DNA of 64,000 nucleotides from an uncultured Clostridia bacterium (GTDB lineage: Bacteria; Bacillota; Clostridia; Christensenellales; Borkfalkiaceae), in the NCBI GenBank assembly GCA_964513195.1, contig CAZELQ010000001.1, positions 1,990 to 65,989 of the forward strand. The letters are read 5' to 3'. The position numbers and the translations under genes are program-made. The notes beneath the pieces are model-generated. The model did not search any database, was not told where the DNA came from, and saw only the letters and a program-made list of their open reading frames with translations. Positions 24,575 to 51,921 of this stretch are shown here, piece by piece (the first letter of the stretch is position 1; the number at the start of each line of letters is the position of its first letter).

Positions 24575-24600
24575 AGGCGTTTGCCATTGTACAAACGCCT
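24575..24600 (-). terminator. Terminator hairpin downstream of hisIE
   Basis: Stem AGGCGTTTG, 8-nt loop, stem CAAACGCCT, 37 nt past the hisIE stop. The flanks are T/A-rich on both sides. Confidence 0.65.
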
Positions 24601-24636
24601 GTTTTACGGTATTATGTCTGACATAATATCTCCGGA

Positions 24637-33644: not shown

Positions 33645-33647
33645 ATG

Positions 33648-35084: not shown

Positions 35085-35086
35085 AA

Positions 35087-36550
35087 TCAGAACGGAGGCA
35101 ATTCGTCGTCGGGATAAACTTTGCCGCCGTCGGTTTCCTCCTCGGGCGGAACGTAATCGGGCACCGGCGCATTGTCATATACCGGCTCCTCTATGCCGTC
35201 CTGCGGTTCGGGGTTGACGAACTTGGTATATTCACCCTTAAAGCGCAGTTTTATTCTGTCCAAGCCGCCGTTTCTGTGCTTGGCGATAATCAGGTCGGCC
35301 ATACCCTTTACGATATTACCCTTTTTCAATTCCTCTTCGGTAGCGGTAACGTCGGGTCTGTTTATGAACATAACGATATCGGCGTCCTGCTCAATTGCGC
35401 CCGATTCTCTCAAGTCGGAAAGCTGGGGTTCCTTGGTCTGCATACGGCGGAGCTGCGAAAGCGCGATAACGGGGACGTCGAGCTCCTTTGCCATAATTTT
35501 AAGCTCTCTCGTTATATCGGCCACTTCCTGCGTCCTGTTTTGGTCGGCGTTATTTTTTCCGCTCGACATAAGCTGAATATAGTCTATCATAACAAGGTCG
35601 AGCTGGCCGTTGTTTTTCGCCTTGATTCTGCGGCATTTGGAAAGTATTTCCGCAGGCGTCACGCGGGAAGAATCGTCTATGTAAATTCTGCTCTTTCTCA
35701 GTTTTTCAGCCGCTTTCGTCAAATTTTTCCAATCGCCTGCCACAAGCTTGCCGCCGCCGGCGAGAGCATTGGACATAGAGACTTTTGCATAGCTGCATAA
35801 TAGCCTCTGAATTATCTGAATTTCGGGCATCTCAAGCGAAAATACGGCGCAAACTTTATTTTGATTGAGCGCCGCGTTTTCGACGATATTCATGGCTAGC
35901 GAAGTCTTGCCCATACCGGGGCGCGCGGCCAGAACGATAAGGTCGGATTTCTGCAGACCGTTCGTTAGGTCGTCCAGCCTGAAAAAGCCGGTCAGTACTC
36001 CGCGGAACGAATCCTTATTTTTGTCGAGCTTCTGAAACTTGTCGATAACGGCGTCGACCGCGTCGCTCTCCCTTATATCTTTGACCGATGAAGAATCGTT
36101 TGACTTGGAAAGGTCGTATACGAGCTCCTCGGCGTATTGGACGCTTTTAACGTTATCGTCACTCTTTTGCGCAAAGTTGATAATTTCCTTTGCCGCTCTT
36201 ATAAGTTTTCTGTTAACGCTGTCGCGCCTTACGATTTCGAAATAGTGATTATAATTGGCGGACGATGGCGTAAGCTGCGTAAGCGAGGTAAGGTATGAGA
36301 GACCTCCCGCCTTTTCGAGGTTTCCTTCGGTTTCCAGCCTGTCCGCAAGCGTAACCAAATCAAGCGGTCTATGGTCGTGGTAGACTTGTTTCATAGCCGA
36401 CAGAATGAATTGGTGCGATTCCTGATAAAAATCGTCCTCGGAAAGCTTTTCCAAAACGTCGGCAAGAATCATATTATCTATCAGCATGCAGGAAAGTAAG
36501 GCCTGCTCTGCGTCCAAATTGTTCGGCATCGTATTTATTTTGTCTGACAT
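35087..36550 (-). CDS. dnaB: Replicative DNA helicase (DnaB family; DnaC in Bacillus nomenclature) with an extra C-terminal tail
   Basis: P-loop ARPGMGKTS, IDYIQLM, SQLRR and GAIEQDADIV. At 487 aa it includes a 41-aa acidic, Pro-rich C-terminal extension. Confidence 0.93.
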   Translation of the reverse strand: MSDKINTMPNNLDAEQALLSCMLIDNMILADVLEKLSEDDFYQESHQFILSAMKQVYHDHRPLDLVTLADRLETEGNLEKAGGLSYLTSLTQLTPSSANYNHYFEIVRRDSVNRKLIRAAKEIINFAQKSDDNVKSVQYAEELVYDLSKSNDSSSVKDIRESDAVDAVIDKFQKLDKNKDSFRGVLTGFFRLDDLTNGLQKSDLIVLAARPGMGKTSLAMNIVENAALNQNKVCAVFSLEMPEIQIIQRLLCSYAKVSMSNALAGGGKLVAGDWKNLTKAAEKLRKSRIYIDDSSRVTPAEILSKCRRIKAKNNGQLDLVMIDYIQLMSSGKNNADQNRTQEVADITRELKIMAKELDVPVIALSQLRRMQTKEPQLSDLRESGAIEQDADIVMFINRPDVTATEEELKKGNIVKGMADLIIAKHRNGGLDRIKLRFKGEYTKFVNPEPQDGIEEPVYDNAPVPDYVPPEEETDGGKVYPDDELPPF

Positions 36551-36556
36551 AGTACT

Positions 36557-38335
36557 TTATATTCCCATCAATTTTTCAAATTCGAACAGGCAATTTTCAA
36601 ATTCTTTCATTGCAAACTCGAAAGGTTCTTCACTGCTTAGATCCACGCCCGCAAACTTCAAAAGCGAAACGGGGTCGGTCGACGAGCCTCCCGAAAGGAA
36701 CTTGAAATAGTCTTTTACCGCGCTCTCGCCTTTGGTTAAAATATTGTTGACTATATTTATAGCCGCCGTCAAGCCGGTAGCGTACTTGTAAACGTAGAAT
36801 GAAAAATAGAAATGCGGTATTCTGCACCACTCGCACGAAATTTCATAGTCGTGCTCTATTTCTTCGCCGTAATAGATCCGTCCGATATCGCCGTAGAGCT
36901 TACAGAGATTTTCGCGGGTTAACGGCTCGCCTCTTTCGACCATTGAGTGCGCCTCGTATTCGAACTCGGCAAACATAGTCTGTCTGTGCAGGGTTGCGCG
37001 TATTGAATCGAGATAATAATTCAGAAGATATTTTTTTAAATTTACGTCGTCTGCCTTGGAAAGAATATTTTTCAAAAGCAACACTTCGTTTACGGTGCTC
37101 GCAACCTCGGCGACGAAAATTTTATATTCGCTCTTGGCATACGGTTGATTTTTATGCGAAAAATAGCTGTGCAGAGCGTGTCCCATCTCGTGGGCGATAG
37201 TAAAGATATCGCCGGTCGTAGGCTGGTAATTGAGCATAACGTAAGGATGAAGCCCGTAAATCGCCCCGGCGTATGCGCCGTTGCGCTTTCCCTCCGTTTC
37301 TTCAACGTCAATCCAGCGCTCGGCTCTGCCCTTTCTCAAAAGGTTCTGATAATCTTCGCCGAGAGCAGCAAGGCCGTTAACGACAAATTCAAAGGCCTCG
37401 TCAAAAGGCATTTTCAGTTCGGCGTCTCCGACGAGCGGCGCGTACACGTCGTAAAAATATAATTTATCATAACCCAAAATCTTCTTCCTGTCACCGATAT
37501 AGCGGTGCATTGCGCCGAGGTTTTTATGCATGCTATGAAGAAGATTTTCATAAACTTTTTTATCGACGTCCTCATAAAACAACGCTTGGTCGAGGCAGGA
37601 ATCGAATTTATATACCTTACTAAGAAAAACGTTTTTCTTTATATTGCCGTAGTAGTTGGCTGTAAGAGTATTTATAAGACCGATATAAGCGGCATAATAT
37701 TTTTTGTAAGCCTCCTCCCTCAATTTTCTGTCGTCGGAATGGAGAAGTACACCGTAAAGACCGTGCGACAGCTTACGTTTTTCGCCGTCGATTTCGATTT
37801 CCGGCAAAGGCAGGTCGGCGTTGTCAATCATGGCGAAAACATCGTTAAACGTGCCGAGCGTTTCGCTTGCGAGAGCTACTATTTTTTCCTCTTTTTCGCC
37901 TATTATGTGACTCTTTTTCTTGAGTATTTGCTTAAATTGGTAGTCGTAAGCCGCGAATCTTTCGTCTTCTATAACGCTATTTAAATATTCGTCGGGCAAA
38001 GAGGCGATTTCCGGCTCGTAAAACGCAGTCTCCGCGCAGTATGCGGAATACAGCATATCGACCTTGCCGCAAAGGGCGTTGTATTTAGTCACCCTCGTAT
38101 CCTCGTCGCGCCTCATGCCGGCATATAAAGAAAGGCGCTCCAACCGACTGCCCAGCCAATCGTTATATTCGAGGAACCCGAGCAATATCTTTTTGTCGCC
38201 GAGCTTGCCTGCATACGCGGAAAAATCTATCTTCTTCTCGACTTCGTCAAAAGCGTTCTGCCACTTTTCATCGGTTTCGAATATATCTTCAAGCTTCCAC
38301 TTATTTTCGGTCTTAACTTCGTTTCTTAACATCAT
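36557..38335 (-). CDS. pepF: Oligoendopeptidase F (M3B)
   Basis: HEMGHALH zinc motif, about 590 aa, with a typical PepF N-terminus (WKLEDIF). Confidence 0.9.
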   Translation of the reverse strand: MMLRNEVKTENKWKLEDIFETDEKWQNAFDEVEKKIDFSAYAGKLGDKKILLGFLEYNDWLGSRLERLSLYAGMRRDEDTRVTKYNALCGKVDMLYSAYCAETAFYEPEIASLPDEYLNSVIEDERFAAYDYQFKQILKKKSHIIGEKEEKIVALASETLGTFNDVFAMIDNADLPLPEIEIDGEKRKLSHGLYGVLLHSDDRKLREEAYKKYYAAYIGLINTLTANYYGNIKKNVFLSKVYKFDSCLDQALFYEDVDKKVYENLLHSMHKNLGAMHRYIGDRKKILGYDKLYFYDVYAPLVGDAELKMPFDEAFEFVVNGLAALGEDYQNLLRKGRAERWIDVEETEGKRNGAYAGAIYGLHPYVMLNYQPTTGDIFTIAHEMGHALHSYFSHKNQPYAKSEYKIFVAEVASTVNEVLLLKNILSKADDVNLKKYLLNYYLDSIRATLHRQTMFAEFEYEAHSMVERGEPLTRENLCKLYGDIGRIYYGEEIEHDYEISCEWCRIPHFYFSFYVYKYATGLTAAINIVNNILTKGESAVKDYFKFLSGGSSTDPVSLLKFAGVDLSSEEPFEFAMKEFENCLFEFEKLMGI

Positions 38336-38343
38336 TTTCCTCT

Positions 38344-39699
38344 TTAATTCTTATTTGAATGAATGGGTGCGGGTATAAGTCCGCCCCTTAAAATAAATCT
38401 TTCGGAAGATTTGGAGTGCACCGGCATAATCGGCGCTCGGCCGAGCAGCCCGCCGAAATTTACCTCTTCCCCAACTCCTTTTCCGGGCACAGGAATAACC
38501 CTGACGGCAGTCGTTTTGTTATTTATCATGCCGATAGCCGCCTCGTCCGCGATTATCGCGCTTATCGTCGTCGCGGAAGTATCGCCCGGAATAGCTATCA
38601 TATCGAGGCCGACAGAACAAACTGCCGTCATGGCCTCCAACTTGTCAAGATTTATGTCGCCGCGCTCAGCCGCCTCTATCATTCCGATATCTTCGGACAC
38701 CGGAATAAACGCGCCCGAAAGTCCTCCAACGCGCGAGCTTGCCATAACGCCGCCCTTTTTCACCGCGTCGTTTAGCATTGCAAGACAGGCGGTCGTGCCG
38801 TGCGTACCGACGCTCTCGAGCCCCATGGCCTCGAGTATCTGCGCTACGGAATCGCCTCTGGCAGGCGTGGGCGCGAGCGATAAGTCGACTATACCGAAGC
38901 GCGCGTTTAGTCGCTTTGCCGCCTCGTTGGCGATGAGCTGGCCTGCCCGCGTGATTTTGAAAGCCGTACGCTTGATTGTCTCGGCAAGCCGGGCAAGGTC
39001 TGCGTCCGGCACCGCCTCTATCGCGTGCTGTACGACGCCCGGTCCCGAAACGCCCACGTTTATGACGGTGTCGCTTTCGCCTACACCGTGAAAGGCGCCC
39101 GCCATGAAAGGGTTGTCCTCCACGGCGTTACAAAATACTACGAGCTTGGCGCAACCGAAGCCGTCCTTGTCCTTCGTAGCCACGGCTGTTTCCTTTACAA
39201 CCTCGCCCATAAGCTTGACGGCGTCCATATTTATACCCGACTTCGAGGAACCGACGTTCACCGAAGAACAGAGCATATCGGTCGTTGACAGAGCTTCGGG
39301 AATGGTCCGTAAAAATACTTTTTCGTAATCTGCCGTTCCCTTGTGGACAAGCGCAGAATAGCCGCCCAAAAAGTCAATATTCAGCTGTTTAGCCGCCCTG
39401 TCGAGAGCCTTGGCAATCAACGGAGCCTTTTCGGGGAAGGCCGCACAAAGAATACTTACCGGCGTTACCGAAACGCGTTTATTTACGATAGGTATTCCGT
39501 ATTCTCTGAACAGATCGTCGGCCACGCCGACGACGTTTGCGGCCTTTTTACATACCAAATCGTAGACGGCGTTTGCGGTCTCTTCCCCCGTCGCCCTTAT
39601 ACAGGGCAAAAGGGAAATTCCCATAGTCACCGTTCTGATATCGAGGTGTTCCCTCTCGACCATATCTATTGTTTCGAGTACGTCTTTATAGTTGAACAT
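38344..39699 (-). CDS. UPF0210 (DUF711) family protein
   Basis: About 450 aa. The [12 protein letters not shown] start pattern is typical of UPF0210, and it pairs with the upstream ACT protein. Confidence 0.8.
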
Positions 39700-39707
39700 A
39701 ATTCACC

Positions 39708-39977
39708 TCAAATGCTGTGCATCGCGCTGAATACGTCCTCGTGCTGGAGGTGAACCGACATACCTATTTTTTCGCCCATCACCTTACACTCCTGAGCAAG
39801 GTCCGCAAGCTTCTGCGTGGCGCCCGTAAGGTCAACCAGCATAATCATTGCGAAGTATTCGTCCATAATAGTCTGGCTGATATCGACGATATTTACTTTC
39901 TTTTCCGCAAGAAACGTGCTGACCTTAGAAATAATGCCTGTCTTGTCTTTACCGACGACGGTAACAACTGCTCTCAT
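39708..39977 (-). CDS. ACT domain protein (UPF0237 family)
   Basis: 89 aa with MRAVVTVVGKDKTGIISKVSTFLAEKKVNIVDISQT. Confidence 0.85.
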   Translation of the reverse strand: MRAVVTVVGKDKTGIISKVSTFLAEKKVNIVDISQTIMDEYFAMIMLVDLTGATQKLADLAQECKVMGEKIGMSVHLQHEDVFSAMHSI

Positions 39978-39997
39978 AAATTTTCTCCGTATATTTC

Positions 39998-40609
39998 TTA
40001 ATTCCCGCCGTTAAAAGCCGACGGCAGCGTGAATTCGAAAAAAGTATTCAAAGAAGTAATAATATCTTTGTTTTTCATGGACCACGCGGTAACTACGCCC
40101 TCCGTCCAACCGATAGGCATACAGCCATATTCCTCAGAGCGGCTGTCGTTGCTGTCGTCGCGGTTATCGCCGAGACAGTACATATACCCGTCGGGTACGG
40201 TAATCAGAGGAGCGTTGGCCTTCTCCAAGTTATTTATTTCCAGCACGTAATCCTCGATTAGCGCCTCTCCGTTTAAAAACACGACGCCGCTCTTAATTTC
40301 CACAGTATCGCCGCCGAGCGCGATGAGCCGTTTAATAAGAGTCTTTTTACCCGTATTGATTATGATTATATCGCCGCGCTTGGGCGTTTCGTACTTGTTG
40401 GCATAGACGAACTGTCCGCCCTTTTCCGCCCCGCTCTCGGCGCCTATCAACGTGTTCTCCATCGACGGGCCGATAACGTATACCTTAAAATACGTGTTCA
40501 TCCATAAAAAACACGCCGTAAAGAAAGTAAGAATTACGAATACGACTATCAGAAGAATCCAAGAAAAGCCGTCATCGCGCTTTTTATAGTTTATAGGAAG
40601 TTGTTTCAT
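39998..40609 (-). CDS. lepB: Signal peptidase I
   Basis: N-terminal TM helix, GPSMENTL (Ser), IKRLIALGGD (Lys) and GDNRDDSNDSR. Confidence 0.9.
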   Translation of the reverse strand: MKQLPINYKKRDDGFSWILLIVVFVILTFFTACFLWMNTYFKVYVIGPSMENTLIGAESGAEKGGQFVYANKYETPKRGDIIIINTGKKTLIKRLIALGGDTVEIKSGVVFLNGEALIEDYVLEINNLEKANAPLITVPDGYMYCLGDNRDDSNDSRSEEYGCMPIGWTEGVVTAWSMKNKDIITSLNTFFEFTLPSAFNGGN

Positions 40610-40612
40610 TAA

Positions 40613-42283
40613 CTATAACCAAATCAGATTATTCAGCGCAAATTTTCCGCTCGCCGTTAAAATAAGCGTTTCGCAACCCGTAAAGTCGTTTAAGGAAATT
40701 CCGTTGTTGTTTTTGAACATTTTGGGCTTTAAAATACAGCTCTGCCATACGCCGCCGATTACGCTCTGCTTAATCCAGAAATTCTCTCCGTCGCCCTTTT
40801 TCAAACTTATATCTATGATAATATTTTCTTCGGAGCAAATGTCCAGCTTCAGAATGCTGTCCTTATCGGGGGCAAACCGCGGCGCCTTTATTCTGTTCGT
40901 CGCAAGACCGCCCATCGAGTATATGCCCGAAAGGTCGCACATTGTGACCATTTGCGGCAGTATTTCGTCGTCCGTCAGGAAAACGTCGCCGACCGCACTG
41001 TCCGAACATTCGGCGACGGCAAAGCTCTCCGCGCCGAATGTATTCGTATAAATAATTCTGGACTTGGATTGGCTGTTGCGGAACCTGCCGCTTATCTTTT
41101 TGACCGCAAGCTTAGACCAAACGGTAAAGCCGTTGGAATACACGACGTAGCACATAACGAAAATCAGCGACGTCTTTTCGTATATATTCAAAAGATATTC
41201 GCTCACATCGGCGCTTATCGACTTCTTATGAGGCGCAAGGACCCAGTCGCGCGTGGAAAAATCCATACAGTCTTCCGATATAAAGACGTTGCATTTTTCT
41301 ATAATGCCCATACTGTCGCAGACAACCTTGGCGACAAGGTTGCCGTCATCGTCGACGTTTACGCTTATATCGGCGGGCTTAGGCATAAATACGTGTCTGC
41401 CCTTTACGTAGCCGTCGAGGAACATTAACATATCTTTCGTGCCGCGCAAATCTATTCTCTTACCGGTATTTATCGAATATGCGATAGAGCTTAAGCCGGC
41501 ATACTGTGGATTTATGCGCGAAAAGGTGTCGAACGCCCTGTCATAATTGAAGTCGGGATTATTCGTCGAACACAGAATAAGCACCGGACACTTTACGTAG
41601 GGCGCGTAAGATTGCGAATCGATACCGGCTACGAACCTGTATCTCTCCTCGTCGAATTCGGGCTCCGTTCCGAAAAATTTTCCGTGTCCGCGATATGCTT
41701 TCCAGCCGCAGGCGTTTACCGTTACCGCACATGAAAAACGCGCGACGGCGGCCAATTTCCAGACGATTTCCCCTCCGTCGCCGATTCCTATGAGACCTAT
41801 ATTCTCCGTAAGGAATTTTTCCTGCAGATATTTTCTTGCGTAGACGCCCACAGCGACCCATTCATACCAAGTGGTCTGAACGGCCGTATCATCGACGAAA
41901 TCCTTATGTCTTCCGCAGAAAACCGAGTTTGCGTATTTGACGTTATCGGGGTATCTCGTAAACCTGCGCTTGCCCTCTGCCTCGCCGGAATAGTCAACGT
42001 AAAGAGCGCTGTAACCGTTCTTCACGAAATAAGCGAGCAGCTTTTCGTCAACGTCGTCGTTTTCGTCGCGGAGAATAAGCACGCATTCTCTCGACGGCGT
42101 TTCCTCATGATAAGCGACGACGCCGGATATGCTTACCCTACCCATTCCGGTATCGCGGCCTGAAAATTCTACGTATTCATATTTTATGCCGTCGTCGACT
42201 TTTTCGTCGAGAGTTACCGGCATCAAGGCGAGCTCGGCGTTAAAATTTTTCCAAAGCGATAGCGGCGTAAGAATGTTTGACAA
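40613..42283 (-). CDS. Hypothetical 556-aa protein; N-terminal alpha/beta-hydrolase (CE7/AXE1-like) fold with the nucleophile motif apparently substituted
   Basis: The pattern resembles acetyl-xylan-esterase-like proteins (GYSALYVDYSGE...WYEWVAVGVYARKYL...IGLIGIGDGGEIV). There is no signal peptide. The C-terminal roughly 300 aa are unassigned. Confidence 0.4.
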   Translation of the reverse strand: MSNILTPLSLWKNFNAELALMPVTLDEKVDDGIKYEYVEFSGRDTGMGRVSISGVVAYHEETPSRECVLILRDENDDVDEKLLAYFVKNGYSALYVDYSGEAEGKRRFTRYPDNVKYANSVFCGRHKDFVDDTAVQTTWYEWVAVGVYARKYLQEKFLTENIGLIGIGDGGEIVWKLAAVARFSCAVTVNACGWKAYRGHGKFFGTEPEFDEERYRFVAGIDSQSYAPYVKCPVLILCSTNNPDFNYDRAFDTFSRINPQYAGLSSIAYSINTGKRIDLRGTKDMLMFLDGYVKGRHVFMPKPADISVNVDDDGNLVAKVVCDSMGIIEKCNVFISEDCMDFSTRDWVLAPHKKSISADVSEYLLNIYEKTSLIFVMCYVVYSNGFTVWSKLAVKKISGRFRNSQSKSRIIYTNTFGAESFAVAECSDSAVGDVFLTDDEILPQMVTMCDLSGIYSMGGLATNRIKAPRFAPDKDSILKLDICSEENIIIDISLKKGDGENFWIKQSVIGGVWQSCILKPKMFKNNNGISLNDFTGCETLILTASGKFALNNLIWL

Positions 42284-42355
42284 AGGTGTTCTCCCATTTA
42301 AAATTATATGCTTGCGGCCCGACGCATATATAGCGTATTAAAAAATAAAAATGAA

Positions 42356-42384
42356 TTGATTTTTCCGCTTGTTTGAGTTATAAT
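42356..42384 (+). promoter_or_regulatory. SigA-type promoter for the DnaB/DnaD-type initiator operon
   Basis: TTGATT (42356-42361), 17 nt, TATAAT (42379-42384). Confidence 0.5.
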
Positions 42385-42482
42385 ATTATTCGCACCGTTA
42401 ATTCGGGCGACAATTATTCATTTTGAATATATTATATTCCTTTTCGTTTTATAAATCAAGCGTTAACGCGGGAGTTTTGAGC

Positions 42483-43901
42483 ATGGCTTTTATTTCGGTG
42501 GCCGAAGAGCTTACCAAACGGACGACGACAGCCGTCGAAAACAAATTCATAATTAAATACCTTGCCGAGCTTGAGCCTATGGCCGTAAAGGCTTATCTTT
42601 ACGCGCTGTATCTCGTCCAGAACGGACAAACCGCGTGCACGCTCGGCGACCTTGCGGTAAAATTGAACATTTCCGAGGACGACGCCAAAGGCTACTTCGA
42701 GTATCTTTCCGAATTTGAGTTGGTCGCCATTACTTCTTATTCCCCTTTCGAGATAAAAATTCTCGATTGCGACAACAGTTCCGGCCGTCCCAAAAGACTC
42801 AATCCCGAGAAATACGCCGGACTTTACGAGGAGCTTCAAGATATTCTTTCGGGCAGAATGATATCTCAGAGCGAATTCAGAGAATATCTGATTTTGCTTG
42901 AAGACTACGGCTTCGAGCGCAACGCTCTAATAATGATAATTACATATTGCGTTAATCTTAAGGGCAACGATATAGGCGCCGCCTATATAAAAAAGGTCGC
43001 TAAAAGCTTTTCCGAAGACGGAGCGACAAGCGCGCGGCAGGTCGAGGAAAAATTGGCTTTCTTCACTGCCTCTAAGGTTGCCTTGAAAAGGCTGTATGAA
43101 GAGTGCGGCAGCACGAAAACGGTCGCTTCCGGAGAGGATTCCGCTTATTATTCCAAATGGGTTAAATCGGGCTACGACCTCGATAGAATCATATGCGTTA
43201 TTAAGTGCTTTAAGGCAAAGAAATTCAGCGTTATCGACGGCATTATCGAAGAGCTGTCAAAGAACAATATTTTCGAAGAGCAAGATATCTTAGCCTATTC
43301 CGAGGAAAAACGCGAGCTACAGCAAATTACAAAAACGGTCGGAAAATCACTCGGCGTTTACGTTTCGGACGCCGCCCCCTACATCGGGCACTACGTATCG
43401 AAATGGAAAGAATACGGTTACAGCCAAAGCTCTTTAAAAGTAATTGCCGATTACTGCTTTACCTGCGGTAAAAACAATTTCGGCTCCATGGACAACTTCG
43501 TGACAAAATTGTTCGAGGAGGCGATTATAGATAACGACAGCGTTTTAAACGCAATTTCAAACCTGACCGACGACGACGCTTTCCTGAAAAAGGTTTTATC
43601 GGCCTGCGGTATAGAGAGCAACGTAAAAGCTTCCGACAGACAAGCGCTTATAAGATGGCGCTCATGGGGCTTCGGCGACGAAATGATTTTAAAGGCCGCA
43701 GAGCTTTCCTACGGCAAAGGCAATCCGTTAACCCATATGAACAATCTGTTCTCCTACTGGAAGGCGTCGGGCATATTCAGTATAGACAAAATTACCGACA
43801 AAAAAGATAAGAGCTATAATAAAACCTCCGCAAGAGAGCGCGATATGGAAGTGTACAGGAAATTATACGCAAAATTAGCCGAAGAGGACAATGATGAGTA
43901 A
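42483..43901 (+). CDS. DnaD-domain replication initiation / helicase-loading protein (Bacillus DnaB-type, 472 aa)
   Basis: Start at MAFISV with a GGGAG SD. There is an N-terminal winged-helix-like region and then repeated DnaD-like modules (YIKKVAKSF, YVSKWKEYGYS, LIRWRSWGF, NNLFSYWKASG). Confidence 0.75.
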   Translation: MAFISVAEELTKRTTTAVENKFIIKYLAELEPMAVKAYLYALYLVQNGQTACTLGDLAVKLNISEDDAKGYFEYLSEFELVAITSYSPFEIKILDCDNSSGRPKRLNPEKYAGLYEELQDILSGRMISQSEFREYLILLEDYGFERNALIMIITYCVNLKGNDIGAAYIKKVAKSFSEDGATSARQVEEKLAFFTASKVALKRLYEECGSTKTVASGEDSAYYSKWVKSGYDLDRIICVIKCFKAKKFSVIDGIIEELSKNNIFEEQDILAYSEEKRELQQITKTVGKSLGVYVSDAAPYIGHYVSKWKEYGYSQSSLKVIADYCFTCGKNNFGSMDNFVTKLFEEAIIDNDSVLNAISNLTDDDAFLKKVLSACGIESNVKASDRQALIRWRSWGFGDEMILKAAELSYGKGNPLTHMNNLFSYWKASGIFSIDKITDKKDKSYNKTSARERDMEVYRKLYAKLAEEDNDE

Positions 43902-44481
43902 ATTATTAAAAAGGCATATAATCGAGGTGCTGACCCTCATAAGGGTCAACTACGAAAACGCCTATAAAAACCAAGACGAAAACGAAGCCGAACTGCTGGT
44001 AAGAAATTGGTACAACTTTTTGAGCAAGTACGATTACGAAACGGTTATGGCGGCGACCCAGCTTGCGATAAGCAAATCCGAGTACGTGCCGAGGCTGTCA
44101 AATATAATTAACGAGGCGGAAAAGCTTATCAACCCCGACGCAAAATCAGACGAACAGCTTTGGGCGGAGCTATACTCCGGTCTCGGAAAGGTTTACGATA
44201 TCTCCCGGTATCTGGCCTACCCCCAATACGTAAAATGGGCAAACGGCAAGCTCAAAGAGATTTACGAAAACTTGGACGACGATATAAAACTATACGTCGT
44301 TAACGTTTCCGCTCTGGTGGAAATTTCCGAGATGAACGACGACTCGCTGCTCTATGAAAAGGCGCGTTTTTTAAAACAGATGCCCGTCCTGAAAAAGAAT
44401 AAGAGCGATAAGGCTACGGCGCAGAACCTTCTTGCGCAAATCGGCGGCGCACCGAAGCTTCCGGAAGCAAAGAAGAATTGA
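43891..44481 (+). CDS. G39P-like (replicative helicase loader/inhibitor family) protein without an ATPase motif
   Basis: The N-terminal 80 aa (ELLVRNWYNFLSKYDYETVMAATQLAISKSEYVPRLSNIINEA) fit my recollection of the phage SPP1 G39P loader family pattern. There is no Walker A anywhere. It overlaps the upstream gene by 11 nt. Confidence 0.5.
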   Translation: MMSKLLKRHIIEVLTLIRVNYENAYKNQDENEAELLVRNWYNFLSKYDYETVMAATQLAISKSEYVPRLSNIINEAEKLINPDAKSDEQLWAELYSGLGKVYDISRYLAYPQYVKWANGKLKEIYENLDDDIKLYVVNVSALVEISEMNDDSLLYEKARFLKQMPVLKKNKSDKATAQNLLAQIGGAPKLPEAKKN

Positions 44482-44488
44482 TAATTAT

Positions 44489-44517
44489 AAAGGCGGACAA
44501 ACGTCCGCCTTTATTTT
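44489..44517. terminator. Bidirectional terminator
   Basis: Stem AAAGGCGGAC, loop AAAC, stem GTCCGCCTTT, with A/T flanks. It lies between convergent genes. Confidence 0.85.
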
Positions 44518-44529
44518 AAGTCTAAAAAA

Positions 44530-45462
44530 TCACTTATCTTGCGGTTCTTCGCCTGCCGGCTGCTGCTCCTCTTCTTCCGTTTCGGAATACGGATTGACGT
44601 GCACGGTCACGTGTTTGACTAACGGGAAATTTTGTTCTACCCCGTCGTGCACCTTTTCCGCTATGGAATGAGCCTCGCTCAGCAAGAGATTTCTGTCGCA
44701 GGCAATTTCCGCAACGACATATATACGGTTGCCGAATAATCTGGTCATTAAAGTATCGAGCCGCTTTACACCTTCGCAGGAGCAAATAAATTCTTTGAGA
44801 CGGCTCTCCGTTTCGCTGTCGCAGGCCTTGTCGGTCATTTTGTTTATAGCGTCGACGAAGATGCTTATTGACGCCTTTAAAATCAATAGACAGATAACTA
44901 TTGCGGCTATTGAGTCCAGAATGGGCACTCCGCACATTGCGCCGACGATACCTATTAAGCTGCCAACCGAGGAAAGTGCGTCCGAACGGTGATGCCATGC
45001 GTCGGCTTTGAGCGCGCCCGAATTTATCTTTTTCGCCGCAACATAAGTGTACCAGAACATTGCCTCTTTGACGACGATAGAAACAACGGCCGCCGACATG
45101 GCGAGAAAATCGGGTGTTTGCGCCGTTTTATAGCTGCCGTCGACGATATTCTTTATACCGCTGTAGCCTATACCGATACCCGTCGCAAACAATAACGCCG
45201 ACAAAAGAATCGCCGCTACGCACTCGTACCTTTCGTGCCCGAATTCGTGGTCCTTATCTGCGGCCTTTGCGGAAATTTTTACGCCGATTATAACTATTAT
45301 CGTGGAAAATACGTCGGAAGCCGAATGAATGGCGTCGGAAACCATTGCAAGCGAATGGCCTAAGAAGCCTGCAACGAATTTGAAAGCCATCAGAATGAAA
45401 TTGAAAATTATAGTAATAACCGAAACTTTGACGGCTATTTTTTCCGCTTCAGAACCCTGCAT
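44530..45462 (-). CDS. Cation diffusion facilitator family transporter
   Basis: Six TM helices, HSLAMVSDAIHSASD and HHRSDALSS metal-site motifs, and a C-terminal cytoplasmic domain. Confidence 0.88.
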   Translation of the reverse strand: MQGSEAEKIAVKVSVITIIFNFILMAFKFVAGFLGHSLAMVSDAIHSASDVFSTIIVIIGVKISAKAADKDHEFGHERYECVAAILLSALLFATGIGIGYSGIKNIVDGSYKTAQTPDFLAMSAAVVSIVVKEAMFWYTYVAAKKINSGALKADAWHHRSDALSSVGSLIGIVGAMCGVPILDSIAAIVICLLILKASISIFVDAINKMTDKACDSETESRLKEFICSCEGVKRLDTLMTRLFGNRIYVVAEIACDRNLLLSEAHSIAEKVHDGVEQNFPLVKHVTVHVNPYSETEEEEQQPAGEEPQDK

Positions 45463-45501
45463 TTATTGCTCCGAATTTTTTGTATTTTTGCTTAAAATGA
45501 A

Positions 45502-45531
45502 TTGACAATACACGTCATTTAAATATATAAT
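45502..45531 (+). promoter_or_regulatory. SigA-type promoter of tRNA-Thr
   Basis: TTGACA (45502-45507), 18 nt, TATAAT (45526-45531). Confidence 0.6.
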
Positions 45532-45566
45532 ATTCGGGTAAGCCGTTAAGGTTTACAAATGAGTAT

Positions 45567-45642
<76 letters not shown>

Positions 45643-45644
45643 CG

Positions 45645-45680
45645 GAACCCCCAAAATTTTGGGGGTTCTTCATTTTATTC
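45645..45680 (+). terminator. Terminator after tRNA-Thr
   Basis: Stem GAACCCCC, loop AAAATTTT, stem GGGGGTTC, then TTCATTTTATT. Confidence 0.8.
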
Positions 45681-45802
45681 GTTTAGATAACCAAAAGCAG
45701 TACTCAAATGCGGCAATAACATTCGGGTACTGCTATATTCTACGCTGTTTATTATTGCGCGTTTTCGATAATCTTATTACAATGCGCGCACTCGATTATA
45801 GG

Positions 45803-46147
45803 CTATTGCGCTTTTTTTCTCGCTATTGCGATTCTTATCTTTTTGGAGGCGGGCTTCCCATCGTCCGTTTCCGCAGCCGCAGGCGCCTCGGCCGGTATAT
45901 TCTCCATCTCGACGGCGAGCCCCTCTTTTATTTTCATTCTTACGTATGCAACCGCGCAAGGTTGAGGCACTGTCTTGTCGCAGTTTTTGCAGAACGGCGC
46001 GTACGAGCCGCACAAGTCGGACTTGAATTTTTGGCTGTTCAGAAACTTATCGTTGTCAATAACCTGCTGAATCTGAGCGAGATTTTCCGCCGTCAATACG
46101 TGAGGCATTTCCTTTAAAAGCTCTAAAGGTCCGTTTTCATTCCACAT
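45803..46147 (-). CDS. Hypothetical 114-aa protein with a C-x6-CxxC-x8-C motif and a basic tail
   Basis: ATG 46147 is preceded by an AAGGCGG SD and by TTGATT, 17 nt, TATAAT. A hairpin (AGCAGTAC...GTACTGCT plus TTTTGG) lies downstream. I do not recognise a family. Confidence 0.5.
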   Translation of the reverse strand: MWNENGPLELLKEMPHVLTAENLAQIQQVIDNDKFLNSQKFKSDLCGSYAPFCKNCDKTVPQPCAVAYVRMKIKEGLAVEMENIPAEAPAAAETDDGKPASKKIRIAIARKKAQ

Positions 46148-46214
46148 AGCACATACCGCCTTTTGAATTATATTTCTATTATAGTATAAATACACGTCGA
46201 AATCAAGTCTATTT

Positions 46215-47144
46215 TCAAATTTCCTTGACTATGAGAGTGCCTAAAATCTCCTCGTATTTTTCACGGCGGAAAGAAATGGTGTCGGGCAGAGTCACGGCCG
46301 CGGTACCTGCCGCCACTCCGCTTCTTAAAACGTCCTCGAGGCCCGCCCCCTCCCCGAGAGCTTTAGTAGCGGCGGCAACCATAGCGTCGCCCGCACCCGC
46401 CGTGGAATTCATGGCAACGTTAAGCGACATGCAGTAGTAACGCTTTTCACCGTCGCAGATTACCGCGCCGTTTTTGCCTAAGGAGAGAAGCACGCGCTTG
46501 GCACCTTTGGCAATCAATTTATCGCAGGCGCGTATCATACTGTCCTTATCGGTTATTTTAACTTTAAGCGCCTTTTGAAGCTCGGCGAGATTGGGCTTTA
46601 CAAGGTCTACGCCGTATTTTAACAGATTTACAAGCTTGTCGCCGTCGGTATCGATTACCCTGATAACGTTTTCGGGCACAGCCGAAAGTATCTGCTCCAT
46701 ATAGTTCTGCGGCAAGCTGTCCGTGCATCCGCCCGATATTACGACGGCGTTGCATTTTGTCGACAGGTCTGCGACGGTATCGACCAGCTGTTGCAGATTT
46801 TCGCCCTCGATAGGCGTCGCCTCGTCCACAATTTCAGTGAGCATTGAACGATTATCGACAAAGTTGAATACTTCCCTTACCTTACCCTTGTTCCAGACGA
46901 ATTTATAAGTAACGCCCTCGCGGTGAAGCTCCTGTTCGAACAATCTGCCGCTTTCCTCGTGCATAAAGCCGCTGGCTATGGAATCCGCCCCCAGCCTTTT
47001 TATGCCCGCGGCGACGTTGAGCGCCTTGCCCATAAGATACGTGCGCTTGCTGATAACCTTGTGAGTCCTGCCCACCGAAAGCGAGTCGACTTCAATATTT
47101 ACTTCGAGACAAGGGTTCAAACTTACGCACAAAATCATTTTCAA
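46215..47144 (-). CDS. PfkB-family hexose-phosphate kinase (1-phosphofructokinase / tagatose-6-P kinase type)
   Basis: The N-terminus SLNPCLEV...GKALNVA and the C-terminus TAGAGDAMVAA are typical of the FruK/LacC/PfkB subfamily. Confidence 0.85.
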   Translation of the reverse strand: MKMILCVSLNPCLEVNIEVDSLSVGRTHKVISKRTYLMGKALNVAAGIKRLGADSIASGFMHEESGRLFEQELHREGVTYKFVWNKGKVREVFNFVDNRSMLTEIVDEATPIEGENLQQLVDTVADLSTKCNAVVISGGCTDSLPQNYMEQILSAVPENVIRVIDTDGDKLVNLLKYGVDLVKPNLAELQKALKVKITDKDSMIRACDKLIAKGAKRVLLSLGKNGAVICDGEKRYYCMSLNVAMNSTAGAGDAMVAAATKALGEGAGLEDVLRSGVAAGTAAVTLPDTISFRREKYEEILGTLIVKEI

Positions 47145-47170
47145 AAACCTTTTAAACTGATATTTTCAAT

Positions 47171-47200
47171 AAAAAAACCGCTTTTTCGTTTAAAGCGGTT
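47171..47200 (-). terminator. Terminator after pfkA
   Basis: On the minus strand: stem AACCGCTTT, 7-nt loop, stem AAAGCGGTT, followed by TTTTTTT. Confidence 0.8.
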
Positions 47201-47215
47201 CGTAATTTTTACAAG

Positions 47216-48178
47216 TTACATAGATATCATCTGAAGAGTTTCATACAGTTCGTAATTAAATTTCTTCTTCATGCTGACCGCTTCGATAATGTCCATATCT
47301 ATTATCTCGTTTTTATGGATACCAACCACTCGGTTGCCGATGCCGTCCTTTAAAAGTCTTACGGCTTTATTGCCGAACTGCGCCGCCAACATTCTGTCGG
47401 CCATTGACGGCGAGCCGCCGCGCTGTATATGGCCTATAGTCGTAGGTCGCACGGAATAGGTCGTTACCGACTGAAGCTGTTTTGCAAACTCGTCGGCCGT
47501 GCAAACGCCCTCGGCGACGACAACAATGTTGGAGTGCTTGCCGTTGGCGCGCGAACGGTTAATCCGCATAACGATATCGTCGAGGTCAAACACGACCTCG
47601 GGAACAACGATGATTTCGGCACCGCTTGCAATGCCCGCATAGAGCGCGATATCGCCGCAACGCCTGCCCATAACCTCGACGACCGAAATTCTCTCGTGTG
47701 AGGTCATAGTATCGCGAAGCTTGTTTATAACGTCGATACAGGTATTGACCGCCGTATCGAAGCCGAGCGTGTAATCGGTGTATTCGAGGTCGTTATCTAT
47801 CGTGCCGGGAATACCTATGGTGGGAATTCCGTACTCTTCCGAAAGGCACTTAGCGCCCCTGAAAGAGCCGTCGCCGCCGATAACGACAAGCCCCTCGATA
47901 TTTCTTGCTTCCAAAGTTCTGACCGCACGCTTCTGCCCCTCTTTGGTGAGCATTTCAAGGCATCGTGCCGTTCTGAGCTTGGTGCCGCCGCGCTGAACTA
48001 TATCGGAAACCGAGCGCATTTCCATAGAGATCATATCGTCGTCGATAAGACCCTGATAGCCGCGCTGGATGCCGTAAACTTCCATACCGTAATACATTGC
48101 AGTCCTGACGACCGCCCTTATGCAGGCGTTCATTCCGGGAGCATCGCCGCCGCTGGTAAGTAAACCGATTCTTTTCAT
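47216..48178 (-). CDS. pfkA: ATP-dependent 6-phosphofructokinase
   Basis: MKRIGLLTSGGDAPGMNA, VIGGDGS, GIPGTIDND and GHIQRGG. Confidence 0.94.
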   Translation of the reverse strand: MKRIGLLTSGGDAPGMNACIRAVVRTAMYYGMEVYGIQRGYQGLIDDDMISMEMRSVSDIVQRGGTKLRTARCLEMLTKEGQKRAVRTLEARNIEGLVVIGGDGSFRGAKCLSEEYGIPTIGIPGTIDNDLEYTDYTLGFDTAVNTCIDVINKLRDTMTSHERISVVEVMGRRCGDIALYAGIASGAEIIVVPEVVFDLDDIVMRINRSRANGKHSNIVVVAEGVCTADEFAKQLQSVTTYSVRPTTIGHIQRGGSPSMADRMLAAQFGNKAVRLLKDGIGNRVVGIHKNEIIDMDIIEAVSMKKKFNYELYETLQMISM

Positions 48179-48315
48179 TGAAAATCCTCCGACGTCTTCG
48201 GCATACGCCGCACGTTTGCGCTCGCCCCCTTAACCGTATGCCGATAGAAGTTTCATTCAAGTAATTATTATATCAGATTTAAAAATTAAAAACAACCCTT
48301 TTTGAGAGAATAATT

Positions 48316-51300
48316 TTAATTATTGTCAACGTATTTTATGTCTTCCTCGTGAATATATCCGCAGAGCTCCGCCAAAAGGGCTTTACAATAATTTACTCCG
48401 TGGGGAAGCCTGTATCTTTTATCTCCCCGCACAAGCGCGCACGTAACTGTACCTTCGTAGCTTGACAGCATTTGCACGAGCTCGTCAAAGCTATCGTCGG
48501 AAAGCGCACCTGTATTCAGCCAGAGTACCGGTCCCCTGCGCGCACCCGCCGCAGCCGTATTTGTTTTACGGTCGTAAGAAGATACGTCGAATTCCTTGAC
48601 GTCGTCGATTATAATGCTTGGTTCGTCCTCTTTAGACAGGTCGAGCTTGCCCTTTAACGTGACTATTTTGTCGTTAGCTATTACGGCCTTAATCCTTTCG
48701 AAAACCGACGGGAAAGCTACGCAATCTATGTTGCCGTATACGTCCTCTAACGTCAAAAACGCCATGGTAGCGCCCGAGTTTCTCGTTGTCGTGCGCCTTA
48801 TAGCGGAAATAATACCGCCCATCGTTACGGGCATACCGTCCGAAATCCTGTTATAAGTCCTCATCCCGTCTTCGTCCTCCATATAGTCCGAGAGATAAGA
48901 ACAATTAAAGGAGCAATCCCTGAAAGCCGACATATATCTTTCAAAGGGGTGACCGCTGACGTACACGCCGAGAACGAGTTTTTCCTTAGACAATTTGTCC
49001 ATAAGCTCGAATTCGGGTATGTCAGGGTATTCAACTTCGAGTTTTTCGTCGGTAATTATATCGCCGAACAGGCTCAACTGCGCACCGCTCTTCTGCTTGC
49101 ATATCGCCGAAGCGCGCGAGTAGAGCTCGTCGTAAACGGCATACAGTCTGGAACGGGCTATGCCCATTGCGTCGAACGCGCCCGCAAGAATAAGTCCCTC
49201 TATTATTCTCTTGTTCACCATACCGGCACAACGCAGTAAGAAGTCGGGAAAATCCTTGAAAAGTCCGTGGGTTTCCCTCTCCTTTATTACCTCGTCTATC
49301 GCCGCCTGACCCGAGCCTTTAAGAGCGGAGAGGCCGAATAAAATGCCGTCGCCTTCAACCGAAAACGCCGTCTTTGATTTATTTATATCGGGCGGAGAGA
49401 CGGTTATGCCCTTGTCCTTGAGGTAAATTACATACTTGGTTATTTCGTCTATCTTGTTTAACCGGTTATTTAAAAGCGCGCAGATAAATTCTTTGCAGTA
49501 ATATTTTTTAAGCCAAGCCGTTTGATATGCGAGAGTTGCGTATGCCGCGGCGTGCGATTTGTTGAACGCATATGAGGCAAAACCCTCCATATTGGCGAAA
49601 ATTTTGGCCGCGATTTCGGCGGGAATACCGTTATTTACGCACCCCTTTATCTCGCTTCCGTTGGTGTCGCTTATGCCGCCGTAAATAAATTTTTCTTTCT
49701 GCGCCATAAGGGTCTTTTTGTCTTTTTTACCCATTGCCCTACGTACGAGGTCGGCCTCGCCAAGTGAAAAACCCGCAAGATACTGGAAGATCTGCATGAC
49801 CTGTTCCTGATAGACGGGAATACCGTACGTAACCTTTAAAATCTTTTCTTCCTGCGGGCAATCGTACTCGATCGGCGCTTCGCCGTGCTTGCGTTTACAG
49901 AAATCGTCTATAAAGCGCATAGGCCCCGGGCGGTAAAGAGAGACGCCCGCTATCAGGTCCTCGAGACAGTCGGGCTTCAGCTGCCTCATAAAGCGCTTCA
50001 TGCCGCCCGCTTCAAGCTGGAACACGCCGTCGGTATCTCCCTCGGAGATAAGCTCGTAAGCGCCTACGTCCTCATACCCTATCTTCGTAAAGTCTACCTC
50101 TACACCCGCGTCCTCCCTGATGTAGTCGACGCACTTTTTGATATCGGTAAGCGTTACCAAGGCGAGGAAGTCCATTTTCAGCATTCCCAGCGCCTCGATT
50201 TCCTTGGCAACAAATTGGGTGGTTATATCGTCGCCGTTACGGGAAAGGGGCACGTTGTCGGCAATCTTTTTACGGCAAATGACCACGCCGGCCGCATGCA
50301 TGCCCGTCTGTCGGGGCATACCCTCCAGCTGTAGAGCCATATCGATTACCCTGTGCAGGGTTTCGTCCTCTTCATACATTGCGCAGAATTCGGCGTTACG
50401 CGCAACTTTCAGCTCGTTGAATTTGCTCTCGAGCTCGGCCTTTTTATCGGGGTCGGACTCCTCGCGCATTTTCTTCTCGGTAGAGGCGATTCTTCTTCCG
50501 AGTAAATCTCCTATAGAGGTCTTGCCGTCCATTATCTTGGTCAGCTTGTCCGTTTCGGAATAGGGAACGCGCATAACGCGGCCTACGTCTTTTATGGCGT
50601 TTTTGGCAGCCATAGTGCCGAAAGTGACAATTTGGCAGACGTTTTCGGGATGATATTTTTGCCGTACGTACTCTATCGTTTCCTCTCTTCTTTCCGTACA
50701 GAAGTCGATATCGAAGTCCGGCATAGATACGCGGTCGGGGTTTAAAAAGCGCTCGAACAGCAAATCGTACTGAAGCGGCTCCACGTCGGTAATTCCTATA
50801 GAATAGGCGACTATGGAGCTTACGCCCGACCCGCGGCCCGGGCCGACGGGTATGCCGTGTTCCTTGGACCAATTTATGAAGTCCCATACGATGAGATAGT
50901 ATTCGGCATAACCCATGCCGCAGATTACGCTGAGCTCGTAGTCCGCCCTGTCCCTCTGGACCTTGCCAACGGTACCGTAACGACGCACAAGACCCTCGTC
51001 GGTTATTTTCCTTAGGTATTCCTCGGGCGTGGAACCGTCGGGCGGATCATAACCGGGGATTAAGCTCATATCTCTTATGGGGTAACCCTTTTTATCGAGG
51101 TTGAAAGCCGGCTCGCAAACCTTATCGGCTATTACGCGGGTATTGGAAATTGCTTTCGGCAAGCCTTTAAAAAGCTCCGCCATCTCGTCGCCCGACTTGA
51201 AATAAAACTCGTTGGAGTCGAATTTCATTCTCTTGGGGTCGTCAAGAGTCTTTTTTGTCTGAATGCATAAAAGAACGTCCTGCATTTCCGCGTCTTCTTT

Positions 51301-51921
51301 CTTAAGATAGTGTACGTCGTTTGTCGCAACTATCTCGACGCCTATTTCCTCCGCAAGCTTTACAAGTTTGGGCAGCACCATTTTTTCTTCGGGTATGCCG
51401 TGGTCCTGAATCTCTATGTAAAAGTCGTCGCCGAAGGTCTCCTTTAAGTCCAGCGCCATATTTCTCGCGCCGTCGTAATCTCCGGACAGAAGCCTTCTGG
51501 GTATTCCGCCCGCAAGGCAAGCCGAAAGGCAAATTACGCCCTCGGAGTGCTCCTTTAAAACCTTATAATCGATTTTCGGCTTATAGTAAAATCCGTCGAC
51601 GAACGCCATGGAATCGAGCTGAATCAGATTTTTGTAGCCCGCTTTGTTCTTTGCAAGCAAAATAAGGTGTTCGGCTATATTTTCGGTCTTGTCGTGCATA
51701 TCTCTGGTCATATAAAATTCACAGCCGATGATGTACTTCAACCCCGCGACGGCGGCTTTTTCGGCAAAATGAAGAGTGCCGTACATATTGCCGTGGTCGG
51801 TCATACATACGGTGTCGATGCCGTTGTTTTTGCAGTAATCAATTAAATTGTCGATTTTACAGGCACCGTCAAGCAGAGAGTACTCCGTATGCAGGTGCAG
51901 ATGCACGAAATCTGTCATCAT
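48316..51921 (-). CDS. dnaE: DNA polymerase III alpha subunit (DnaE type)
   Basis: N-terminal PHP domain (FVHLHLHTEYSLLDG), the PDFDIDF catalytic motif, and an OB fold near the C-terminus; 1201 aa. Confidence 0.94.
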   Translation of the reverse strand: MMTDFVHLHLHTEYSLLDGACKIDNLIDYCKNNGIDTVCMTDHGNMYGTLHFAEKAAVAGLKYIIGCEFYMTRDMHDKTENIAEHLILLAKNKAGYKNLIQLDSMAFVDGFYYKPKIDYKVLKEHSEGVICLSACLAGGIPRRLLSGDYDGARNMALDLKETFGDDFYIEIQDHGIPEEKMVLPKLVKLAEEIGVEIVATNDVHYLKKEDAEMQDVLLCIQTKKTLDDPKRMKFDSNEFYFKSGDEMAELFKGLPKAISNTRVIADKVCEPAFNLDKKGYPIRDMSLIPGYDPPDGSTPEEYLRKITDEGLVRRYGTVGKVQRDRADYELSVICGMGYAEYYLIVWDFINWSKEHGIPVGPGRGSGVSSIVAYSIGITDVEPLQYDLLFERFLNPDRVSMPDFDIDFCTERREETIEYVRQKYHPENVCQIVTFGTMAAKNAIKDVGRVMRVPYSETDKLTKIMDGKTSIGDLLGRRIASTEKKMREESDPDKKAELESKFNELKVARNAEFCAMYEEDETLHRVIDMALQLEGMPRQTGMHAAGVVICRKKIADNVPLSRNGDDITTQFVAKEIEALGMLKMDFLALVTLTDIKKCVDYIREDAGVEVDFTKIGYEDVGAYELISEGDTDGVFQLEAGGMKRFMRQLKPDCLEDLIAGVSLYRPGPMRFIDDFCKRKHGEAPIEYDCPQEEKILKVTYGIPVYQEQVMQIFQYLAGFSLGEADLVRRAMGKKDKKTLMAQKEKFIYGGISDTNGSEIKGCVNNGIPAEIAAKIFANMEGFASYAFNKSHAAAYATLAYQTAWLKKYYCKEFICALLNNRLNKIDEITKYVIYLKDKGITVSPPDINKSKTAFSVEGDGILFGLSALKGSGQAAIDEVIKERETHGLFKDFPDFLLRCAGMVNKRIIEGLILAGAFDAMGIARSRLYAVYDELYSRASAICKQKSGAQLSLFGDIITDEKLEVEYPDIPEFELMDKLSKEKLVLGVYVSGHPFERYMSAFRDCSFNCSYLSDYMEDEDGMRTYNRISDGMPVTMGGIISAIRRTTTRNSGATMAFLTLEDVYGNIDCVAFPSVFERIKAVIANDKIVTLKGKLDLSKEDEPSIIIDDVKEFDVSSYDRKTNTAAAGARRGPVLWLNTGALSDDSFDELVQMLSSYEGTVTCALVRGDKRYRLPHGVNYCKALLAELCGYIHEEDIKYVDNN

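Follow-up and report, generated by a model that had tools for sequence, protein, structure and literature searches.

A gene pair in which a domesticated phage protein probably binds and loads the replicative helicase, working in trans with a DnaD/DnaB-family partner and without an AAA+ ATPase, was found in a 64,000-nt stretch of DNA (the window) from an uncultured Clostridia bacterium (Bacillota; Clostridia; Christensenellales; Borkfalkiaceae). The window covers positions 1,990–65,989 of the forward strand of contig CAZELQ010000001.1 in GCA_964513195.1, a 1.14-Mb assembly of 108 contigs that is 85.5% complete (handle G000). The loading of the helicase commits a bacterium to initiating replication, and the textbook route in Firmicutes is DnaD-DnaB-DnaI, with an AAA+ loader. 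The pair consists of open reading frame (ORF) A, encoding the DnaD/DnaB-family protein, and ORF B, encoding a protein that resembles G39P of phage SPP1. Throughout, genus, family and order are those of the window's genome, and G and L numbers are handles of genomes and loci. Comparisons drew on 61 genomes of the genus and 151 of the order, the latter taking in five of the family, four from the genus and one from the sister genus, and on a species-level collection holding one genome per species.

ORF B is placed with G39P by both sequence and predicted fold. Residues 7–73 match Pfam PF11417 (Inhibitor_G39P) over profile positions 2–69 of 69, with 39.1 bits against a cutoff of 22 (E 1.1e-9); the match scores 42 bits in a six-frame search of the genome, where it is the single G39P locus. 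No AAA/P-loop family was matched in Pfam or NCBIfam, NCBIfam gave no match of any kind, and the sequence is devoid of cysteine. An AlphaFold2 model made from 29 close homologues is all-helical (mean predicted local distance difference test score, pLDDT, 84.3), and its N-domain superposes on SPP1 G39P (1NO1_A; VIA-align) with Z 9.4 and a root-mean-square deviation (rmsd) of 1.6 Å over 66 of 67 residues, the runner-up reaching Z 6.0. The same chain ranks top in Foldseek (probability 1.00, TMt 0.81, E 0.14). An initial annotation of this DNA had described the 196-aa protein as lacking an ATPase and as G39P-like, and the first point is borne out. The second holds for the N-terminal 70 residues; the C-terminal 100 residues form a separate conserved helical domain.

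When modelled alone, this C-domain reaches pLDDT 91.1, and it has no clear solved relative: the best Protein Data Bank (PDB) match gives Z 5.1 with an rmsd of 6.4 Å, and Foldseek returns none at E ≤ 0.001. Sixteen of the 24 columns invariant among the 29 sequences lie at residue 90 or beyond, the C-terminal half being at least as conserved as the N-terminal one. In PHROGs, residues 10–189 match phrog_9804, whose function is listed as unknown (E 3.9e-11), and the N-domain matches phrog_2289, labelled "helicase loader" (E 3.5e-7). At E ≤ 0.001 the family counts 923 representatives, of which 198 also pass E ≤ 1e-10; most are of ~200 aa and match from end to end. The gene is under purifying selection, with ratios of nonsynonymous to synonymous substitution rates (dN/dS) of 0.066, 0.095 and 0.079 in the three closest pairs, values that are rough because dS exceeds 1. 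PDB sequence matches of ORF B or its family profile to cytoglobin (E 0.1) and srGAP2 (E 0.001) were taken as chance.

The partner, ORF A, is the sole gene with a DnaB_2 domain found in a search of the window's genome, and its orthologue is present in 60 of the 61 genus genomes. Its frame opens at 42423 in the ORF list, and the ATG at 42483 yields the 472-aa product. The Pfam match to DnaB_2 (PF07261; E 1.8e-17) is a single stretch, and an NCBIfam scan gave no match. Repeated DnaD-like modules had been proposed for this protein. One Pfam stretch and a weak second module at residues 304–328 (i-E 4e-4, with a profile made from module 1) bear this out in part; three stretches are reported by Pfam only in longer orthologues. 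Translational coupling of the two genes, also proposed at the outset, agrees with the coordinates, the ORF A stop codon (43899–43901) and the first ATG of ORF B (43891) giving an 11-nt overlap; an alternative ATG at 43894 would give one of 8 nt. Two variants, G054 (L119:333-1274) and L201:1576-2511, encode short-form proteins of just 311–313 aa (313 aa in G054) that lack residues ~227–301 of the 472-aa form, a natural deletion of a middle module in which the G39P-like gene is retained.

Across the genus, the locus occurs in two mutually exclusive forms. ORFs at 60 gathered loci were scored with profiles and assigned either to a short form, a DnaD-like protein of ~470 aa with an adjacent G39P-like gene, or to a long form of ~570 aa with a C-terminal zinc extension. 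Twelve loci are short (G000, G011, G015, G021, G046, G053, G054, G055, G056, G064, G073 and G076) and 47 long (one of them frameshifted and two cut by contig ends), while one is cut by a contig end. None shows both the zinc extension and the G39P-like gene. At the 12 short-form loci, the two genes overlap by up to 35 nt or are separated by as many as 13 nt, and all 12 G39P-like copies are intact.

The identity of the zinc extension suggests what the G39P-like gene replaced. Long-form proteins end in ~120 residues that correspond to the clostridial DnaC-like loader's zinc-ribbon N-domain but lack its ATPase. In three of three proteins scanned, the extension matches positions 5–121 of 330 of NCBIfam NF005304 (PRK06835, "ATP-binding protein"; E values 4.3e-10, 2.2e-11 and 5.8e-12); it also aligns with the amino-terminal parts of the order's full-length DnaC-like proteins, both having an invariant CxxCxD.G...C.C. 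In other members of the order, a complete DnaC-like gene of 300–318 aa comes directly after the DnaD-like gene (G118, 184.8 bits to NF005304; G030, 219.2 bits). A zinc-domain profile matched in 113 of the 151 order genomes. The matching frames are of ~300–350 aa outside the window's family (a few of 231–449 aa) and of 573–605 aa within it (5/5, comprising the four genus genomes and the sister genus), with none in G000. BLASTP gave no meaningful match between the extension and ORF B, the best (E 0.041) lying elsewhere in the long-form protein, and judged by sequence the two are not homologous. A reading of ORF B as a diverged zinc domain was rejected, given its lack of cysteine and its different fold. 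The initial annotation's inference that a phage-type, non-ATPase loader may act where dnaI would be expected is supported; the item replaced was a fused, ATPase-less zinc domain and not dnaI.

The ATPase-less fusion of a DnaC-like zinc N-domain to a DnaD-like protein is apparently undescribed. No report of such a fusion, or of a G39P-like chromosomal loader, was found for Clostridia in the literature searched; the PMC5109545 table of species whose genomes have neither loader may bear on this. Examples of the fusion are L052:1501-3219, L053, L056 and L063, as well as L121 of the sister genus. In G009 (L118:1505-3231), which also holds a prophage-borne IstB-type ATPase beside RusA, the long-form gene is broken into frames of 291 and 280 aa, through either a frameshift or faulty assembly. 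Zinc-ribbon C-termini were also seen in a 357-aa protein of G163 (L126:790-1863; NF005304 positions 30–119, E 2.5e-14) and in otherwise unassigned frames of 221–390 aa (G077:C3:147771-148103 and contigs C38, C35 and C16 of G188). These additional proteins may be replication proteins of mobile elements.

The exchange took place at a fixed chromosomal site. As far as the flanks reach, homologues of the upstream gene (50–69% identity) and of a downstream cation-efflux gene (68–83%) border both forms, so the pair is not a prophage island, and its classification as a prophage remnant was rejected on this synteny, in line with the initial annotation. Comparison of the DNA of G073 with G042 and of G053 with G018, the nearest unswapped sisters, shows that homology stops at about residue 433 and resumes at tRNA-Ser(CGA); the segment exchanged therefore takes in the DnaD-like gene's 3′ end as well as the new ORF. 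The ORF A tail lies just past this break, and the tails of the 12 short forms each bear one of two conserved motifs. In part of the genus (L100:3116-3203, L097:2136-2223, L117:2403-2490 and L110:1271-1358), this tRNA-Ser(CGA) gene comes immediately downstream of the locus and delimits the swapped segment on the right; the window has no such gene at the corresponding place.

The swap, seen at 12 of 60 loci, is polyphyletic. On a quick IQ-TREE phylogeny of the shared part of the DnaD-like protein (55 rows from the genus, with the sister genus added), three changes are required to explain the short form: in a nine-member clade (Shimodaira–Hasegawa-like approximate likelihood ratio test, SH-aLRT, 100), in G053, sister to long-form G018 (SH-aLRT 96), and in G073, sister to long-form G042 (SH-aLRT 100). 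A FastTree phylogeny of the helicase (53 rows) gives the same three-place picture, with G054 joining the clade of nine. In an approximately unbiased (AU) test on the helicase (52 rows), grouping the ten short-form genomes as one clade was rejected (delta lnL 365.75, p 7.6e-62). The helicases of G073 and G042 are 94.6% identical despite the different forms of the locus. The 12 chromosomal ORF B homologues share 35–87% identity with one another and 35–41% with the nearest copy in a prophage context, from which we conclude that the cassette probably entered the genus once and then spread within it by recombination.

Relatives of ORF B outside the chromosomal locus point to a phage source. The family profile matched in eight of the 151 order genomes, near-full-length in G000, G118 and G163 and over the N-domain only in five, and a single-protein search added a copy, 40% identical, in G017 of the genus. 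The order relatives outside the locus adjoin phage-type genes: a Cro/CI-type repressor (G118), an HNHc nuclease and DUF6291 (G163), and Phage_rep_org_N (G017). G017 has the long form at its chromosomal locus alongside this prophage-context relative. Among 26 loci with an ORF B relative in the species collection, several of which come from the same genomes as the G handles so that the counts are not independent, 24 have it directly behind a short DnaD-like gene; in the remaining two, which are prophage-like, it comes after DUF6291 or Phage_rep_org_N, near RecT, a repressor and a methylase. By record title, the organisms are uncultured Clostridia, Christensenella/Christensenellaceae, Candidatus Coproplasma and Candidatus Borkfalkiaceae. 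A comparison with predicted viral structures gave as its best matches phage proteins of 190–236 aa, matched over their full length and labelled replisome organizer or G39P N-terminal (top match E 1.1e-6, TM 0.58). A tblastn search of 50,697 phage records gave one match, a 5.5-kb unannotated record at 26.8% identity, and a scan of IMG/VR with the family alignment gave 71 pattern matches, none of them confirmed. Close relatives are thus absent from these two phage sets, and what supports the phage link is the evidence of profiles, of folds and of prophage surroundings. The order in prophages, an organizer gene followed by a G39P-like gene, is that of SPP1 and of the chromosomal pair.

Another loader was sought at the level of the genome, the genus and the order. 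A whole-genome profile search of the window's genome found no DnaC/DnaI-type loader in an assembly that is 85.5% complete, which answers the question of a dnaI or dnaC elsewhere that the initial annotation had posed; two matches to PF01695 (IstB/DnaC/DnaI ATPase) are DnaA (TIGR00362, 432 bits) and PhoH (PF02562, 325.9 bits). Within the same assembly, DciA (PF05258, DUF721/KH-type) was likewise not found, nor does ORF B match it, and neither our zinc-domain profile nor tblastn recovered a remnant of the zinc N-domain. Matches to PF01695 occur in all 61 genus genomes, mostly in frames of the size of DnaA or PhoH. The four strongest of loader size all lie beside phage or transposon genes, namely RecU and DUF7768 (G073), a Mu transposase domain (G048), Lin1244_N and RusA (G009), and Phage_rep_org_N (G055). 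At E ≤ 1e-12, PF01695 matches in 66 of the 151 order genomes and in none of the five from the window's family. The lineage evidently manages without an AAA+ loader.

A sequence of events consistent with these observations can be proposed. The starting point would be the arrangement seen across the order, a dnaD-like gene and, behind it, a DnaC-like loader with a zinc-ribbon N-domain and an AAA+ domain. In the window's family, the zinc-ribbon helicase-interaction domain would have become fused to the end of the DnaD-like protein, with loss of the ATPase. In at least three lineages of the genus, recombination may then have traded the fused zinc domain for a short tail and a separate, phage-derived G39P-like gene. 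ORF B, together with ORF A as hub, would bring the replicative DnaB helicase to the origin, and would probably be held on the hub via the short conserved ORF A tail. ORF B is read as the helicase-binding/loading module because the gene order in prophages mirrors that of SPP1 and of the chromosomal pair, and because the displaced domain is the helicase-interaction domain of a loader.

Several known systems offer points of comparison. SPP1 G39P (1NO1) has the same four-helix fold as the ORF B N-domain at 15% identity; neither has an ATPase, and both are encoded directly after a gene of origin- or replisome-organizer type. They differ in that ORF B is chromosomal and paired with a host DnaD/DnaB-family protein, whereas SPP1 G39P is paired with phage G38P. 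The clostridial DnaC-like loader (NF005304/PRK06835) occupies the same operon place as ORF B, directly after the DnaD/DnaB-family gene (G118, G030). Unlike it and DnaI, ORF B has no AAA+ domain, zinc ribbon or cysteine, and is unrelated to both in sequence and fold. Lambda P/DopE is a helical, non-ATPase loader that comes from phages and that some bacteria have domesticated, as is proposed here for ORF B. A lambda P chain (9oa1_Y) ranks second in Foldseek for ORF B (probability 0.92, TM 0.42) but with an rmsd of 21.9 Å, and a lambda P fragment ranks 28th against the C-domain (Z 4.0); there is no sequence match, and homology is not claimed. DciA, lambda P and G39P are grouped as loaders without an ATPase in PMC12214026. 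For B. subtilis, PMC13326638 identifies the zinc N-domain of DnaI as the helicase-interaction domain and the C-terminal tail of DnaB as binding DnaI.

The closest precedent is that of VdhL1 and VdhL2, G39P-like chromosomal proteins proposed, in PMC11087808, to replace DciA in Vibrionaceae on the basis of presence and absence and of predicted structure. By the description given there, they share with ORF B a chromosomal location, a G39P-like core, phage origin and exclusivity with the resident loader, and in both cases the proposal draws on patterns of presence and absence and on structure prediction. They displace DciA and belong to another phylum, whereas ORF B displaces a fused zinc ribbon and is translationally coupled to the hub. 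Replacement of a resident loader by a non-ATPase phage loader is thus a known kind of event. The present case is set apart by the phylum, the replaced item (a fused zinc domain without an ATPase), and the repeated swap between species with near-identical helicases.

Three alternatives to a loading role were weighed. ORF B could regulate or inhibit the helicase until initiation, as SPP1 G39P does, with loading left to DnaA and the DnaD-like hub. The Pfam family name covers both the loader and the inhibitor of G40P, and a lineage evidently without an AAA+ loader may need less help in loading than model organisms do. We nevertheless regard this as unlikely: ORF B replaces, in the same position, a known helicase-interaction domain of a loader, and since SPP1 G39P both inhibits and delivers, the proposal is more a shade of the loading role than an alternative to it. 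Less likely still is that ORF B is an adaptor of DnaD-like fold, linking the hub not to the helicase but to another partner (DnaA, primase or DNA). Its N-domain does resemble DnaD domains (2zc2_B, Z 5.1; 2i5u_A, Z 4.3), and its gene directly follows one for a protein with putatively several DnaD modules. The G39P match lies far above these (Z 9.4 vs 5.1), the PHROG label of the N-domain family is helicase loader, and the displaced domain is one of helicase interaction.

We consider it very improbable that ORF B is a prophage leftover, selfish or in decay, with no role in replication, the loss of the zinc domain being tolerated for other reasons. Its nearest relatives outside the locus do lie in prophage-like regions, and its distribution in the genus is patchy (12/60 loci), but no phage genes flank the pair and synteny with unswapped species is kept. 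Moreover, the 12 of 12 intact copies are tightly coupled to ORF A, dN/dS is 0.07–0.10, the G39P-like gene is never found together with the zinc extension at the locus, and the nine-member clade of the DnaD-like tree, joined by G054 on the helicase tree, has retained the gene.

A number of observations weigh against ORF B as a loading module and temper our preference for it. Helicase binding, docking on the ORF A tail, and loading as opposed to merely holding the helicase are functions that we infer for ORF B, and SPP1 G39P loads and also inhibits the G40P helicase. The C-domain is predicted to be folded, helical and conserved, unlike that of SPP1 G39P, a short protein whose disordered C-terminal region contacts the helicase, as Bailey et al. 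are reported to have found in 2003. PDB sequence searches with ORF B and its family profile did not recover the G39P chain. No helicase alignment column changes in all three swapped lineages, and 15 change in two; the group rejected by the AU test was chosen after the tree had been seen. Since the 108 contigs make the genome only 85.5% complete, the part not assembled could harbour a loader. An IstB-type ATPase is present in two short-form genomes, G055 and G073, amid phage-like genes (in G073 the frame has an internal stop), and weaker PF01695 matches of loader size occur outside the four strongest in G062 (313 aa, E 1.3e-8), G072 and G047 (241 aa, E ~1.5e-5), all three being long-form genomes. 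A 1:1 complex prediction for the helicase and ORF B, run without controls, gave scores of 0.00, 0.65 and 0.01, with the mark set at 0.32, and speaks neither for nor against binding.

The presumed client of ORF B, a replicative helicase that the initial annotation had placed about 6 kb from the pair, lies 5.9 kb upstream of ORF A; no other gene of the genome matches DnaB_C in full. A further match to DnaB_C, a weak one (G000:C57:4459-4650; 27.4 bits, profile 3–67) in a 460-aa frame is probably RadA/Sms. Fifteen further neighbouring ORFs (32401–51921) were scanned, of which 13 fall into housekeeping Pfam families and two have no Pfam match and no PHROG match either; none of those scanned is phage-specific, in keeping with the earlier remark that no phage genes lie beside the pair. 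The neighbourhood includes the helicase, an M3 peptidase, DUF711, an ACT protein, a signal peptidase, a cation-efflux protein, two sugar kinases and DnaE. One ORF (40613–42283, minus strand; 556 aa, with a TTG start and perhaps a later true start) has no match in Pfam, NCBIfam or PHROGs and is conserved throughout the genus as the gene next upstream of the DnaD-like one, at the 50–69% identity given above. Another (45659–46117, plus strand; 152 aa) likewise has no match in these three collections. Cumulative GC skew is maximal at ~22–24 kb of the window (feature at ~22000–26000), which would place the helicase, the loader pair and dnaE within ~30 kb of the presumed terminus.

Table 1. Features of the putative helicase-loading locus, in window coordinates.
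Feature	Position	Strand	Basis
Replicative DnaB-type helicase, presumed client	35087..36550	-	TIGR00665, 466.4 bits
Second promoter-like site upstream of ORF A	42277-42304	+	Consensus match only
Promoter-like site upstream of ORF A (TTGATT, 17 nt, TATAAT)	42356..42384	+	Consensus match only
ORF A, short-form DnaD/DnaB-family protein, 472 aa	42483..43901	+	Pfam DnaB_2, 63.3 bits
DnaB_2 (DnaD-type) domain of ORF A, residues 123–190	42849..43052	+	Pfam
C-terminal tail of ORF A, ~residues 449–472, short helix-like motif; candidate docking site for ORF B	43827..43898	+	Inferred
Ribosome-binding site GAGGA for ORF B, within the 3′ end of ORF A	43884..43888	+	Read from sequence
ORF B, two-domain G39P-like protein, 196 aa, proposed helicase-binding/loading module	43891..44481	+	PF11417, 39.1 bits
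N-domain of ORF B, residues 5–74, G39P fold	43903..44112	+	Superposition on 1NO1_A
C-domain of ORF B, residues 85–184, conserved helical, ending in a 35-residue helix	44143..44442	+	Model

A broader proposal, which we advance tentatively and hold to be rather doubtful, is that chromosome replication proceeds without an ATP-driven loader in an entire family of gut Clostridia, and that the helicase-binding module of the hub is exchangeable, being either a zinc ribbon in cis or a G39P-like protein in trans, swapped at least three times. If so, the loader ATPase would be dispensable, and unrelated helicase-binding modules would be interchangeable on the same helicase. The lineage would then be doubly exceptional, having first lost the ATPase and then traded the remaining helicase-binding domain for a phage protein. 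Close species with near-identical helicases would provide a natural experiment on the minimal task of a loader and on the recruitment of phage replication genes by their hosts. The reading also gives a testable function to a two-domain family of 923 representatives; phrog_9804, the phage family matching ORF B almost end to end, is currently listed as of unknown function.

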